A DNA stretch of 64,000 bases from Eledone cirrhosa (taxonomy: Eukaryota): contig OZ024741.1 in assembly GCA_964016885.1 (NCBI GenBank), positions 93,248,001 to 93,312,000 of the forward strand, in the 5' to 3' direction. The position numbers were made by a program, and so were the translations under genes. Positions within the stretch are counted from its first letter, which is position 1; every line of letters starts with the position of its first letter. The notes under the pieces are model-generated. The model had not been told where the DNA came from. It worked only from the letters and a program-made list of their open reading frames with translations, and did no database searches. Below are positions 1-63,590 of the stretch, piece after piece.

Positions 1-3000
1 GCATTGAAAATGTTCTTGTCTTTCAGGAAGGACATCAGTTTTTTCAACTTACCGTGGAAAACTCTGGCTGTAATATCATGCCTGTCACTCATCTGTTGGC
101 GCGCGAATAAATTCTCCTTAATTTCCACCCAATTTGGATTACATGTGAAGGTAATGAAAAGATCTGGCCGCCCAAAGTTACGGACATACGCCATGGCATC
201 CTGTGTCCGTTTATGCATGTACCGGGGTGAGCCAGTGAAGCTTGAAAGAAGGATCACCCGATGTCCAATGTTTTTTGCGTCACCGTCACGCTGCAAAGTA
301 TCCGAAGATGAGCGTAATCAACCGCTCTTAGTTCGGTCTGATGGGTACGTATGTACAAAAGACGTTCCGCTTCAATCTTGGCGTACATATCAACCAAGAA
401 CTGGTTTGTCACCTGGTTTGAACCTCAATTGTTGGTTGAATTGACCGTCTCTGACCATAAGTCTGTATGAATAAAAGTCCATACTGGAAACGTTTTTTGG
501 CAAAGGATTAAGACTTGTCGGGTTAACTTGATGTATCTGCAAATAGTATCCATCCTCGCCGTAGGGAAACAGCAGTGAGTATTGCAAACAATCGTAGGAC
601 CGATGGGTTTCCGCCACGAACGTGAGTCTGTTATCGCGGTGCTGAATGTTGATGTCACGTTTGCCATGAATTTCATCAACCATGATCGCTGCTACCTCAT
701 TGGTAGTTGGAGCGTTGAAACGTCCAGGATGCTCATCAGCAGGAGGTCTGTCAACTCTGATGACCAATTTCATCTCAGGTCTTGAATCCAAAAGCTCCAA
801 AGCACTCTTCAGTTCACAGACGTACGGGTGGGTTGCGTGGAGCATGGCTTGAAATTCCGCAATAATGTTTTGGTCAATAAGAGAATTATTCTTGCATCTG
901 TGGGAAAGCTCCTCATCATTCCCGCCCATGAAGAATACCTGCAAGAATTTCGGTTCCTCTCCTTGTTGTGGTCGAAGGCTTCCCATTAGATGGTAACACT
1001 GCCCTTGAATTTTGTAGGTGTAGAGTTTTCTCTCAGCCTTGTGTCATTGTTTCGAGAAGTACTGGTGACAGCAGTTTCGTCAGTGCTTGTTCTTCTATTT
1101 CTGCCATCCCTTACACCGGGATAGCAAAGCAAGCATTGTACTTCCAAATGTTGTTGCGAAAGTGCACTCCGTGGGTAGAGTTATCAATGAGAAGATATTG
1201 GAGAAAATGAGGAGGATCAGCCAACGCTGGAAGTCGAACCTTGCCCCCGAAACAGTAAAGACCTGGAGCCTCACCTACCCACTTCTTTGCTTCACAGAAC
1301 TGACATACCTTATCCATTTTTCCAAGAGTCATATCCGTGCGATTGTTGTAGTCATAAGCAGGATTGTGGTTGAAGCCAGCTTTTGACCAAAAGGTGTCCC
1401 TTGTAGCAGCAGCATGTTCCTGGCGTCTACGCCGTCTCGATGCCTGTCTTCCCTTGCCTCCGCAGTTTCGTTGAGAAGTGATTGTTGCCATCGAGTGCGC
1501 AGGTCCTGTAAACGGGCCTCTCTGGCCTCCGCAGTCTCGTTGAGAAGTAATTGTTGACGTCGAGTGCGGTGATCAGCAAGGTGGGCCTCCCTTACCTCTG
1601 AAGTTTCCGCCAAACGTGAGCATTGTGGTTAAATGAGCTGAGAAGAAAGACGGGACTCCCTTGCCTCTGAAGTCTCCTCCAGAATTGTGCTTTGGTGCTG
1701 ATGGAGCTGCTCATAAGGAGAGGTTGCCTAAATGGGTAAAAAAAAAATAACCGACATTGATGTGATCTATTAGCTGTGTGTGGGCATCTTATTCAACATT
1801 ATAATGGAAAAACAATATTAAAAGAAGACATAAAGGCGAATTAGCCATCGAAGTAGTCATACAATAACTGTAAATGTAGAAGGTGATAGTTTATTAACAG
1901 CAAAATAGCAATGTCGATGATATGCAAGTTTAAAAATGCAGATTATGAAGGTTTGTATGATAGTTTACACTTTGATTGTCTTGGTCAACAAGAGGGGCCT
2001 CTATATATTAGAGGTTTATTAGAAGAGGGGGAAATAACTAACCCCAGTATTAGAACAGGGGGTTTGCAATGTAAGGGTTTCGATTTCATAAAACGGTACT
2101 GTATGATCGTTATAGAAGTATTTATTTTAATATAGAGCAACCGTAATTGAAAAATGAAAATGAAACGTACTGTAGAAGGCAACGGTTTATTAACAGCGAA
2201 AAACGTTGTCTTTGATATGTTATTTTAAATAAGATAATGAATATTTAAAAAAAAAACTGAATTAATTAACTCGGCAACCAAATGGCTTATAGATCCCATT
2301 CATTAAGTTTACAATGAATATTAAAAAAAAAACTGAATTAATTAACTCCGCAACCAAATGGCTTATAGATCCCATTCATTAAGTTTACAATGAATATTTT
2401 AAAAAAACTGAATGAATTAACTCGGCAACCCAAAGGCTTATAGATCCCATTCATTAAGTTTACATGCATGTATTCTTTAAACTTTTCATTTGACTTTGAA
2501 AAATACTACTTACTGTTAGTGGTGGTTAACATGTATTAGAATTAAAATATAAATGATATCGGAAAAAACGTACCTGAGAACACACCTCCCTTCTTCGCAA
2601 TTTAAAGGTTTTATTTCTTTTGATGGAAAACTGACCGTTTTCTGTTTGGCATTTCGTAAAATGATACTGCAGAATCGATTTCATAAAACGGTACTGTATG
2701 TTAACAGCGAAAGAACGTTGTTTGATATGTTAGGAAAAAATTGATCAGTTTAAAAATTTGTATGAAATTGTAAATAAGACAATGAATATTGAAAGCGACT
2801 ACGGAAAATAACTCATCCAAGTATTAGAACAGGTGGAAATAACTCACCGAAAGCGATAGTAAATAGACCGTTTTGGGGCCCTAGGGATCACATTTTTCAA
2901 GTTAGAGATTTGAAACCTCGTCTATTTGCTTCCTTGGCACTTTTTACAAAGGTGTGTCAATTTTCATGTCTGTCCGACCATGTCTACTACCATTTAACCG

Positions 3001-3048
3001 TGCACAACTGAATTTCAACCACTACCCATTTCACAAATATATATTAGA
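1..3048 (-). mobile_element. Helitron A, 5' part (continues beyond the left edge of the window); frameshifted Rep N-terminal region
   Basis: Minus-strand ORF pieces 1329-1613, 1111-1491 and 390-986 are homologous to the Helitron B Rep (RFNAPTTNEVA, ETHRSYDCLQY, CQFCEAKKW, FRNNIWKYN). The 5' terminus reads A|TCTAATATAT on the minus strand at 3048. Confidence 0.85.
2236..2463. repeat. ~76-bp tandem repeat, three copies, inside the putative Helitron A intron
   Basis: AATGAATATT(A)nCTGAATTAATTAACTCGGCAACCAAATGGCTTATAGATCCCATTCATTAAGTTTAC repeated three times. Confidence 0.9.
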
Positions 3049-3093
3049 TATAAATATATATCTATATATATATATGTATATATATATATATAT

Positions 3094-62320: not shown

Positions 62321-62349
62321 CATTCAGGGTTCTTTGTTAAATCCTTTAT

Positions 62350-63590
62350 TTCCTTGTATGCCTCTGAAGAAGCTGTCAAGTTTCTTCTGCTTCGCGTAGG
62401 GGGTCCAAGCTTTACTGCTGTAGAGCAGAGTGCTGAGCACACAGGCCTGGTAGATGCGCAGCTTGGTCTTCTCTGTGAGGCAGGGATTGTTCCAGACTCT
62501 CTGACTCAGGTTGACCATAACTGCTGCAACCTTGGTGATCCTGCTGTTCACCTCTGTATCTAGTTGTGAGCGAGCCTGAGATGGTGGACCCGAGGTAGGT
62601 AAACTTGTCGACAGCCTCCAGGGCGTGCCCGTCAATGGTGATGGTTGGAGGGTGATCTGTGCCCTGTGCCATGACATTTGTCTTCTTTAGACTGATGGTC
62701 AGTCCGAACTCCTTGCAGGCGTGGGAGAGGCGACTGACAAGCAGCTGTAAGCCCTCTTCCAAGTGCAACGTCAGGGATACATCATCAGCAAAGAACATCT
62801 CACGAATAAGAACCTAGGTCACCTTGGTCTTGGCATAGAGACGGGCAATGTTGAAGAGCCTGTCATTAGCTCTGGTGTGGATGTACACACCCTCACTGCA
62901 GTCCTTGAAGGCGTACTGGAGGAGCATCGAGAAGAAGATGCTGAAAAGTGTCGCCGCAAGGACACAACCCTGCTTCACGCCACTGCTAACAGGGAAGGCC
63001 TCGAATATAGTGCCGTTGAGGCAAACTGTGCTGCGCATGTTCTCGTAGAACAAGATGACACAGCAAGCAGGTGTGGGGGTCAGCCAATCTTCTGAAGAAG
63101 CCTTGAAGAGTTCGCTCCTGCTGACCAGGTCAAACACCTTCGCCAAGTCGATGAAGGCGAGGTAGAGAGGCATCTGTTGCTCCTGACATTTTCTCTTGAA
63201 GTTGGCACAGTGAGAACACCATATCCACCATTGATCGTTCAGCACAAAAGCTGCTCTGAGACTCAGGGTAGGCGAGGGTCTGCAGACGAGCCAGGACAAC
63301 TCGGGCAAATACCTTTCCCATGATGCTAAGAAGGGAGATCCCTTGATAGCTGTTGCAGTCATTTCTATCTCCCTTGTTCCTGTACAAGGTGATGATGATA
63401 GCGTCATGCATGTCCTGGGGTATGTGTCCCCTCCCAACATCGACAGAGGAGTGCATGCAGGGGCTGGAGCAGCGCAGCTTTCCCGCACTTCAGAACTTCC
63501 GCAGGTATGCCGTCGCTCCCTGGGGTCTTCCCATTGGTGAGGCAGTCAATGGCTTTACCAAGCTCCTCTCATGTGGACTGCATGTCGAGC
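62350..63590 (-). mobile_element. Decayed RTE-BovB-like RT fragment
   Basis: GISLLS, FIDLAKVFD, GVKQGCVLA, FADD, ISLKKTNV, YQACVLSTLLY. Confidence 0.88.

Follow-up and report, generated by a model that had tools for sequence, protein, structure and literature searches.

A 300-kb domain of transposable elements oriented one way in Eledone cirrhosa, a likely unistrand piRNA cluster

How remnants of unrelated transposable elements (TEs) come to lie nearly all on the same strand is the question raised by a 64-kb stretch of the genome of Eledone cirrhosa, here called the window. An earlier note, counting 21 of 23 TE remnants on the minus strand, read it as a candidate unistrand, flamenco-like piRNA cluster. 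The analysis described here places the window in a 300-kb TE domain oriented mostly one way, which on balance is likely to be a unistrand piRNA cluster, probably fed by read-through from the gene HUS1.

Results

Stop-free ORFs of at least 65 aa from both strands of the window (276 sequences) were scanned against Pfam, the set of TE domains subjected to the cut-off being RVT_1, endonuclease, Helitron_like_N, PIF1, Integrase_H2C2, DDE_Tnp_1_7 and zf-Tnp_2. All 17 ORFs above the cut-off are on the minus strand, none on the plus strand, and no host exons were recognised among the ORFs scanned, as the earlier note had stated. A hand count of coding remnants, based on tblastn with TE ORFs from outside the window plus a hand-read Tigger-like ORF at 59.5 kb, placed 20 of 22 on the minus strand (two-sided p = 1.2e-4 to 2.2e-4), which bears out the count first made. 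The sole exceptions among the 22 are two Penelope-like elements (PLEs; 48.4-50.5 and about 60.3-61.7 kb), the same two that had been singled out before. If the RTE piece at 24 kb arose by duplication of its neighbour, the ratio (minus:plus, as throughout) falls to 19:2; with automatic merging it is 15:2 (p 0.002). With a library from control windows alone, the window yields 8:2 (p 0.11) and the adjacent 64 kb 14:3 (p 0.013).

Elements of the window are on the minus strand unless stated; the clade labels RTE, Tx1, CR1 and Tigger rest on domain layout and recall rather than on a tree. Helitrons are represented by a remnant at 3..1676, continuing to -1,661 (Helitron_like_N, E 2e-31), a frameshifted Rep-helicase at 5857..9973 (PIF1, E 4e-62; Helitron_like_N, E 2e-35) and an old fragment at 51551..51847 (29% identity, tblastn E 9e-12). 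Two young LINEs, recognised by Pfam, consist of a single open frame. The first (11697..15090), presumably RTE-like, encodes endonuclease, RT and PHD, has a 3' tail, and matches another copy at 98.8%; the second (33570..37181) encodes endonuclease, RT and C2H2 zinc fingers, and is about 99% identical to at least 39 other copies. PHD-LINEs recur as a nearly full-length, frameshifted copy at 24913..28626 (RVT_1, E 1e-29) and, identified by tail and tblastn, as 3' pieces at 23947..24692, possibly a duplicate of the near full-length copy that follows it in the sequence, and 45097..45822, and as a 5'-truncated copy at 37517..38626. Further LINEs are an RT at 21287..22428 (RVT_1, E 2e-29), which we take to be CR1-like, an L1/Tx1-like element with ORF1 and ORF2 at 39307..44497 (RVT_1, zf-RVT, Exo_endo_phos; tblastn), an older RT remnant at 46277..47973 (RVT_1, E 2e-13), a fragment made of part of the endonuclease and the tail at 57782..58281 (tail and tblastn), and an old, low-copy RT remnant at 62369..63553 (RVT_1, E 1e-7), overlapped by a 702-nt DNA contig of depth 7 (62,920-63,621). 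A broken Gypsy at 52940..56441 (Integrase_H2C2; tblastn) is split by a frameshifted piggyBac transposase at 54577..55841 (DDE_Tnp_1_7, E 1e-33; zf-Tnp_2), and its integrase (52.9-53.9 kb) and protease (55.8-56.4 kb) pieces were scored as one element. The transposase C-terminus at 59513..60121 matches a neighbouring Tigger-like ORF (E 1e-4), and its label as Tigger/pogo-like is in part our assumption. PLEs on the minus strand are a 3' part at 17486..18797 (93% to a PLE ORF of a control window), a member of a second family at 19421..20807 (tblastn) and an old RT remnant at 56307..57758 (weak tblastn matches, E 5e-5 and 4e-4); those on the plus strand, found by tblastn, map at 48415..50534 and 60751..61722. 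An unstranded AT microsatellite of 3.3 kb, evident from the sequence, occupies 28934..32256.

The p value of the window itself is only about 1e-4, a figure that could arise by chance a few times among some 47,000 windows, and this could simply be one extreme case; for this reason the adjacent 64 kb served as a hold-out. The bias is repeated there, 24 of 27 elements being minus and three plus (p 5e-5), and chance is thereby already contradicted; the probability over the whole domain and the enrichment in rare families, which is independent of strand, make it scarcely credible. The 64 kb left of the window are more weakly biased (11:7, p 0.48).

The window is in the middle of a domain of 309 kb (C2:93.07-93.38 Mb), extending from about -179,000 to about +126,000-130,000 in window coordinates. 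Of the 91 elements counted from -179 to +130 kb, 71 lie on the minus strand (p 7e-8), as do 54 of 61 non-PLE TEs and 29 of 31 Gypsy, Helitron and DDE elements, and ten unrelated TE classes share the strand; this is the predominance of one strand, over tens to hundreds of kb, that is sought in a unistrand cluster. Outside the domain, ratios are 12:17 to the left, 5:5 in the body of LDHD and 3:2 in the 26 kb next to the LDHD 3' end. The flanks, which the earlier note wanted inspected for a host gene, contain HUS1 (plus) at the left border, with its stop at -179,015, and LDHD (minus, convergent with HUS1) to the right, its last exon ending at +156,272. As looked for in read-through clusters, the domain starts only a few kb past the end of a gene on the same strand: rare TE classes begin 5-10 kb past the end of HUS1, and the first minus mariner-like, MULE, Helitron and piggyBac elements are found between -174.9 and -166.7 kb. 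The running strand score starts rising inside the last intron of HUS1, and reaches a plateau at +126 kb. Near HUS1 the bias is at its lowest (27 of 40 minus between -179 and -8.7 kb); it sharpens at about -9 kb and is strongest 170-300 kb from the gene. In the core (-8.7 to +130 kb) 44 of 51 elements and 91% of the coding bases are minus.

A peak at the domain end nearest LDHD would suit transcription of the minus strand from the right, as by LDHD read-through, the elements then being sense to the RNA and supplying TE transcripts or sense piRNAs. Such transcription is very improbable, since the 26 kb by the LDHD 3' end are unbiased, and the bias reaches into the plus-strand intron of HUS1, antisense to it. 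Moreover, Rfam detects an HDV-like ribozyme at +73.4 kb, on the minus strand, by which any RNA reading it in sense would be cut, and the unmasked domain is skewed (T>A, G>C) with the sign of plus-strand HUS1, in agreement with plus-strand transcription, though the skews are confounded by unmasked TE remnants.

Twenty-two windows of 60 kb were taken as controls, and three of them, copies of one segmental duplication, were dropped. None of the 19 kept is biased (majority strand at most 71%, lowest p 0.39). TE coding density is 0.45 in the domain versus 0.05-0.37 across the 19 controls, both the domain density and the family count being inflated by a TE library derived in part from ORFs of the domain itself. 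Gypsy, Helitron and DDE elements number 31 in the 309 kb of the domain, versus 10 in 1,140 kb of controls. Two of the 12 MULE matches found genome-wide fall in the domain, both minus (p 7e-7), as do three of 114 piggyBac matches among those listed. Such density and diversity are those sought in a unistrand cluster. LINEs predominate, and Gypsy elements (5 pieces, all minus) make up about 7% of TE coding bases.

Two sister hot spots are similarly ordered, 7/7 elements being plus at C2:46.77-47.20 Mb and 6/6 minus at C3:290.29-290.77 Mb, though the latter includes two Gypsy matches of identical score, possibly a single duplication. Six per 500 kb was never reached in 500 trials of random placement. 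A held-out MULE at C2:46.76 Mb is plus, in agreement with the nearby hot spot. A hold-out search with Tigger returned one known minus match in the domain, and one plus match 147 kb left of the C3 hot spot; those with Tc1, Harbinger and Bel-Pao matched nothing within the three hot spots.

Across the genome, neighbouring TEs that are at most 300 kb apart and not in hot spots share the strand in 26 of 58 pairs, a lack of concordance that argues against a TE graveyard, silent, of low recombination and perhaps marking a rearrangement junction, whose one-way pattern would derive from duplication, nesting or replication-linked insertion bias. The repeat content of the domain is indeed very high, and tandem duplications of 7.3 and 5.7 kb are present; because some elements are split and others duplicated in tandem, the count exceeds the number of independent insertions by a few. 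HUS1 and LDHD share a chromosome in O. vulgaris, 685 accession numbers apart, a hint that the two are not adjacent in that species. Yet the duplications account for few copies only, and ten unrelated classes are on one strand. DNA transposons and retroelements differ in insertion chemistry, so a common insertion bias is unlikely, and we deem the graveyard quite improbable.

PLEs in the domain are unbiased (17:13; Fisher p 0.001 versus the other elements), an exemption of the whole class which the earlier note had overlooked. A hammerhead core motif was discarded as its cause, being found near 3 of 29 PLEs without strand pattern; a weak hammerhead-like match at 20,966-21,040 (minus) adjoins the PLE at 19421..20807 (Rfam HH9, E 0.18, below threshold). 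The exemption of PLEs offers a testable hint as to how the orientation is selected.

Other signals were surveyed. Rfam matches at gathering threshold are absent from the window, and miRNA matches proved to be AT-repeat noise. The plus strand is not depleted in AATAAA (182 versus 160 in the core), which speaks against the cluster. A box-B SINE is scarce, at 0.1-0.4 per 10 kb of the domain versus 1.85, and, with 6 copies plus and 2 minus, shows no minus bias. Private changes among LINE copies yielded too few events to assess CpG decay and A>G asymmetry. A match to EIF4E-T at +125.5 kb (E 2e-5) was dismissed since it adjoins an HTH and a DDE motif, which we take to be of Tc1 type. A plus-strand ORF of 170 aa at +66.6 kb, a candidate host exon, is the end of a hAT transposase, and was scored as a plus exception.

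The leading alternative is that the domain is one or more giant introns of a plus-strand transcript (a lncRNA, a gene that escaped recognition, or a HUS1 3' UTR that is spliced) yielding no piRNAs; sense insertions would be lost from it for their interference with elongation, splicing or 3'-end formation. No single gene was found with same-strand exons flanking the domain: HUS1 is entire on the left (residues 1-284 of 285 placed), and the next recognised gene on the right is minus. ORF scans of the domain found no host-gene Pfam domains between HUS1 and LDHD, and the same method recovered exons of LDHD, ribosomal L2, HUS1 and aquaporin in the flanks. Such a scan, which covered 150 of the 205 remaining short unmasked ORFs, would miss exons shorter than 45 codons or lacking a Pfam domain. 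A consensus splice donor is located about 175 nt past the HUS1 stop, ahead of the first of several AATAAA signals found 1-1.3 kb past it, though such motifs occur about once per 10-50 kb, and the minus-strand ribozyme described above, harmful only to RNA in which it is sense, also suits an intron. In the 74-kb last intron of HUS1, 8 of 9 LINEs are antisense; both there and in two control windows, about 80% of RTE 3' tails share a strand. Against an assumed intron-like bias of 80%, the non-PLE exceptions (6/57) are compatible (p 0.10); Gypsy, Helitron and DDE elements exceeded it in a first count (26:1, p 0.03), now 29:2, the plus hAT having been found later. Introns predict neither the enrichment in rare families such as MULE nor a TE density exceeding that of each of the 19 controls, and those of LDHD are balanced (5:5). 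Nor does the domain exhibit the CpG loss of the neighbouring LDHD body: CpG o/e in unmasked DNA is 0.66 versus 0.22, both figures being confounded by unmasked TE remnants. Inside TE coding matches values are 0.55-0.67 in the domain, 0.38-0.42 in the LDHD body and 0.62-0.65 in controls, which is suggestive only. The intron, the main alternative in the earlier note too, is weakened as an explanation, yet keeps the RTE tails in its favour; we hold it rather unlikely.

Two PIWI-clade genes (C2:93.54 Mb and C24:1.1 Mb) and two AGO-clade genes (C15 and C23) were recognised from one exon per gene, so that PIWI proteins, required by a piRNA cluster, are encoded in this genome; one PIWI gene is about 160 kb from the domain. 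Three read runs (X1-X3) behave as DNA, with flat depth of about 7-13 over single-copy exon, intron and intergenic DNA.

Discussion

The data are best accommodated by a unistrand piRNA cluster. Transcription by RNA polymerase II would proceed along the plus strand, probably past the end of HUS1, and produce a long RNA antisense to most of the trapped elements, to be cut into PIWI-bound guides (piRNAs); selection for antisense copies would cause the bias. Transcription, its start, piRNA processing and selection are all steps that we infer. The entire window (1..64000, plus) would be part of the precursor, as suggested by the positions of HUS1 and LDHD and by the strand profile. Whether the precursor would start by HUS1 read-through or at its own promoter is about evenly balanced; a bias weakest near HUS1 and strongest 170-300 kb away fits an internal promoter better. 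Of the reading first proposed, the unistrand cluster is strengthened as a candidate, given a bias over some 300 kb in which no host exon was found, 29 of 31 Gypsy, Helitron and DDE elements minus, enriched rare families, unbiased controls, HUS1 at the left border and PIWI genes; the flamenco-like part does not, since the domain is dominated by LINEs.

More tentatively, octopods may store TE memory in a few giant one-way clusters of 300-500 kb, including those at C2:46.8-47.2 and C3:290.3-290.8 Mb, with HUS1 read-through driving the present domain and PLEs escaping, or being exempt from, the orientation rule. If so, read-through from HUS1, a DNA-damage checkpoint gene, would tie piRNA supply to checkpoint gene activity. 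The domain and its two sisters offer exact coordinates and a predicted strand for one small-RNA experiment. Were piRNAs confirmed, read-through clusters would extend from mosquitoes and mammals to molluscs, and clusters would be detectable from DNA alone, via rare-family enrichment and strand bias.

Repeats account for about half of octopus genomes, in which TEs bear little DNA methylation (PMC9476566), and this makes the means of their silencing of interest. A literature search found no cephalopod piRNA clusters. In slugs, which belong to the same phylum as Eledone, clusters of Arion vulgaris (PMC11615739) and Deroceras laeve (PMC12506671) are described, in the sections consulted, as mostly unistrand, the top ones being unidirectional, and that of Arion as densely packed with TE fragments opposite to the piRNA strand (PMC11615739); they are defined by small-RNA reads, the domain by DNA, and no driver gene is named in those sections.

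The antisense bias of LINEs and LTR elements in mammalian introns (PMC3088655), attributed to selection against sense copies in a transcribed unit, has the same sign as that of the domain, and thereby favours the intron; such bias needs flanking exons and implies no rare-family enrichment, and DNA transposons were not part of that study. Flam-like clusters of Drosophila, defined by antisense Gypsy enrichment, resemble the domain in size (227-1,085 kb versus about 300 kb), in strand bias and in being detectable from sequence (PMC10643416). In contrast, flam has its own promoter and a Gypsy-driven bias, whereas the bias of the domain involves all classes but PLEs; Gypsy does not drive it, and a share of only about 7% of TE coding bases sets the domain apart from flamenco. 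Read-through clusters are known in mammals as piC-DoGs (PMC11615739) and in mosquitoes as core clusters (10.1101/2022.08.22.504762). As in these, dense TE fragments antisense to the upstream gene start from its 3' end and extend for tens to hundreds of kb; the human TMEM181 cluster, as there described, also includes intronic space with opposite-strand TEs (PMC11615739), and the bias of the domain likewise begins within HUS1. The content of those clusters is LINE-1/ERV or viral EVEs, while the domain is made of LINEs, Helitrons, DNA transposons and Gypsy; its bias, unlike theirs, peaks far from the gene, and it is known from DNA alone.

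Results

Transposable elements (TEs) in the window lie overwhelmingly on the minus strand. All the ORFs scoring above the TE-domain cut-off in Pfam searches (17/17, from 276 stop-free ORFs of at least 65 aa on both strands) are minus, and a hand-read tblastn search, its queries being TE ORFs located outside the window, identified 22 elements, of which 20 are minus and 2, both Penelope-like, are plus (two-sided p ~1e-4). The recount closely agrees with the 21 minus remnants out of 23 reported in an earlier note. Since such a p value could arise by chance among the ~47,000 windows of a 3.0 Gb genome, the adjacent 64 kb were taken as hold-out, and carry 24 minus and 3 plus elements; the bias is weaker in the left-hand 64 kb (11:7 minus:plus). 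With a TE library derived from controls only, the direction is the same and the power lower (window 8:2, p 0.11; adjacent 64 kb 14:3, p 0.013). Controls were 22 windows of 60 kb, 12 at preset positions and 10 around copies of a young LINE of the window; three, copies of one segmental duplication, were left out. A similar bias elsewhere in the genome, which the earlier note had proposed to check, was found in none of the 19 windows kept (lowest p 0.39, majority strand at most 71%). One-way TE orientation is real, and extends further than first described. A 3.3 kb AT microsatellite occupies positions 28,934-32,256 of the window, and several LINEs have shorter AT runs at their ends. A large segmentally duplicated block, found in ~30 copies on contigs C16, C19, C20 and C27 (e.g. 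C20:3.5-5.2 Mb), includes Helitron, LINE, Tigger, PLE (Penelope-like) and hAT pieces.

The region studied spans -400 to +314 kb around the window, as counted from its first base. Its flanks, also left to check, host HUS1 (+) on the left and LDHD (-) on the right, with exons 81-85% identical to the Octopus proteins, which makes an octopod the likely source. HUS1 starts at -266.3 kb, has six more exons to -253.3 kb, and its last exon stops at -179,015. The last intron measures 74 kb (-253.3 to -179.1 kb; L115:6665 to L083:900, in numbered segments around the window), and the others <5 kb each. LDHD runs from ~+198 kb down to +156.3 kb. An aquaporin exon is found at -353 kb, ribosomal L2 exons at ~+245 kb, a minus tRNA-Arg just upstream of the HUS1 start (~-267 kb, L114:3081-3155), and a plus tRNA-Ser at +148.7 kb (L019:4733-4814), past the right border of the domain delimited below. 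The HUS1 and LDHD homologues of O. vulgaris reside on one chromosome, 685 accession numbers apart, and the domain may lie at a lineage-specific junction.

The running strand score stays level to the left of HUS1, climbs from its last intron, and reaches a plateau at +126 kb. The ~309 kb domain between the two genes (-179 to +130 kb) has 91 elements, of which 71 are minus, independent insertions being a few fewer because some elements are split or tandem-duplicated. The minus:plus ratio is 44:7 in the core (-8.7 to +130 kb), 27:13 in the left part, and 5:5 in the LDHD body. The bias involves LINEs (25:5), Gypsy (5:0), Helitrons (7:0) and DDE transposons (17:2). Penelope-like elements (17:13, vs 54:7 for all other classes; Fisher p 0.001) are exempt as a class from the strand rule. 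A LINE endonuclease ORF carries at its 5' end, at +73.4 kb, an HDV-like ribozyme (CPEB3 model, minus, above the Rfam threshold; L011:9360-9442). The domain also has remnants of RAG1/Transib-like transposases at L002:5495-6187 (-), and related ones at +81.3 and +87.5 kb (recognition below threshold, Atlas score 0.92-0.95).

Rare families are enriched in the domain. TE coding density is 0.45 vs 0.05-0.37 in controls, and Gypsy, Helitron and DDE elements total 31 in 309 kb vs 10 in 1,140 kb of controls, both excesses being inflated because the library came partly from the domain. MULE elements provide a test free of this bias: two of 12 genome matches fall in the domain, both minus (p 7e-7). Pooling listed piggyBac, Gypsy, Helitron and hAT matches (519 of 575, leaving out 56 duplication-array copies or split matches) revealed two further hot spots at C2:46.77-47.20 Mb (7/7 plus, four families) and C3:290.29-290.77 Mb (6/6 minus, two families; the two Gypsy matches may represent one duplication). 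In 500 trials of random placement a count of 6 per 500 kb never arose, and away from the three hot spots 26 of 58 neighbouring pairs no more than 300 kb apart lie on the same strand. A MULE found later at C2:46.76 Mb is plus, as predicted, bringing C2:46.76-47.20 Mb to 8/8; a plus Tigger match 147 kb to the left of the C3 hot spot is contrary to it or outside it. Both loci are candidate sister clusters. Helitron, MULE and Tigger matches at C3:108.76-108.78 Mb are all minus.

Discussion

The domain is probably, judging from its sequence, a unistrand piRNA cluster. Pol II would transcribe the plus strand, by reading through the HUS1 poly(A) site or by starting at a promoter inside the domain, two options that look about equally plausible, and the RNA would be processed into piRNAs. 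Antisense insertions would be retained for the guides they provide against relatives still active, such as the LINE at 33.6-37.2 kb, which has 39 or more copies at 99%, and sense insertions would be lost or neutral. Alternatively, the domain could correspond to one or more giant introns of an undetected plus strand transcript, a reading for which PMC3088655 gives the precedent, yet unlikely here. The last HUS1 intron is filled with repeats almost throughout, with LINEs 8:1 antisense and all elements 10:5 minus:plus. An RTE-like 3' tail is ~80% one-strand in this intron, as it is in two of the control windows (C2:190 Mb, ~9:2; C11:15.46 Mb, ~10:2, pieces merged by eye), so that LINE bias alone cannot tell intron from cluster, and the count of non-Penelope elements is compatible with an 80% bias (p 0.10). 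However, DNA transposons and Helitrons are biased as well, TE density is high, rare families are present, and exons are lacking. Scans of unmasked ORFs of at least 45 codons covered the 150 longest on each strand (of 219 plus and 246 minus), all 133 filtered ORFs of the far left flank, and 150 of the 205 remaining. The flanking genes were recovered, and the interval from HUS1 to LDHD yielded no host domain, as the earlier note had it for the window; short, domain-less or non-coding exons would escape such scans. Two candidate host exons turned out to be transposases.

Indirect signs of transcription are mixed. In unmasked DNA, T>A (+0.034) and G>C (+0.035) skews of the domain are confounded by unmasked TE remnants, as is its CpG o/e (0.66 vs 0.22 in the LDHD body); both skews are positive in HUS1 (+) and negative in LDHD (-), where they measure -0.046 and -0.051. 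AATAAA is not depleted on the plus strand of the domain, poly(A) signals are present behind HUS1, and the strand bias is greatest far from this gene, all of which argues against a simple transcription picture. A consensus 5' splice site (+, L083:1158-1167), a motif that is not rare, lies ~175 nt behind the HUS1 stop, ahead of the first AATAAA, and could serve splicing of the 3' UTR or suppression of polyadenylation. The genome has four Piwi-domain genes, PIWI-like on C2 and C24, and AGO-like on C15 and C23, as judged by comparing one exon each with solved structures. The PIWI-clade gene at C2:93,539,595-93,546,025 (+292 to +298 kb, L183-L184) lies ~160 kb past the right border of the domain, a closeness spotted post hoc (chance roughly 4e-4).

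The domain is a good candidate unistrand cluster, with two sister loci and HUS1 as candidate driver gene. Clusters of this kind are known in other animals; searches of the octopus and cephalopod literature, mostly outside subscription papers, turned up none from a cephalopod. The earlier proposal of a flamenco-like unistrand cluster gains support as to the single strand and fails as to flamenco: in flam-like clusters, according to PMC10643416, the bias is driven by Gypsy, which accounts here for ~7% of TE coding bases. Rather, the domain would work in the manner of the piC-DoGs of mammals and the unistrand clusters of slugs (PMC11615739), the read-through clusters of mosquitoes (10.1101/2022.08.22.504762), and the clusters of Deroceras (PMC12506671).
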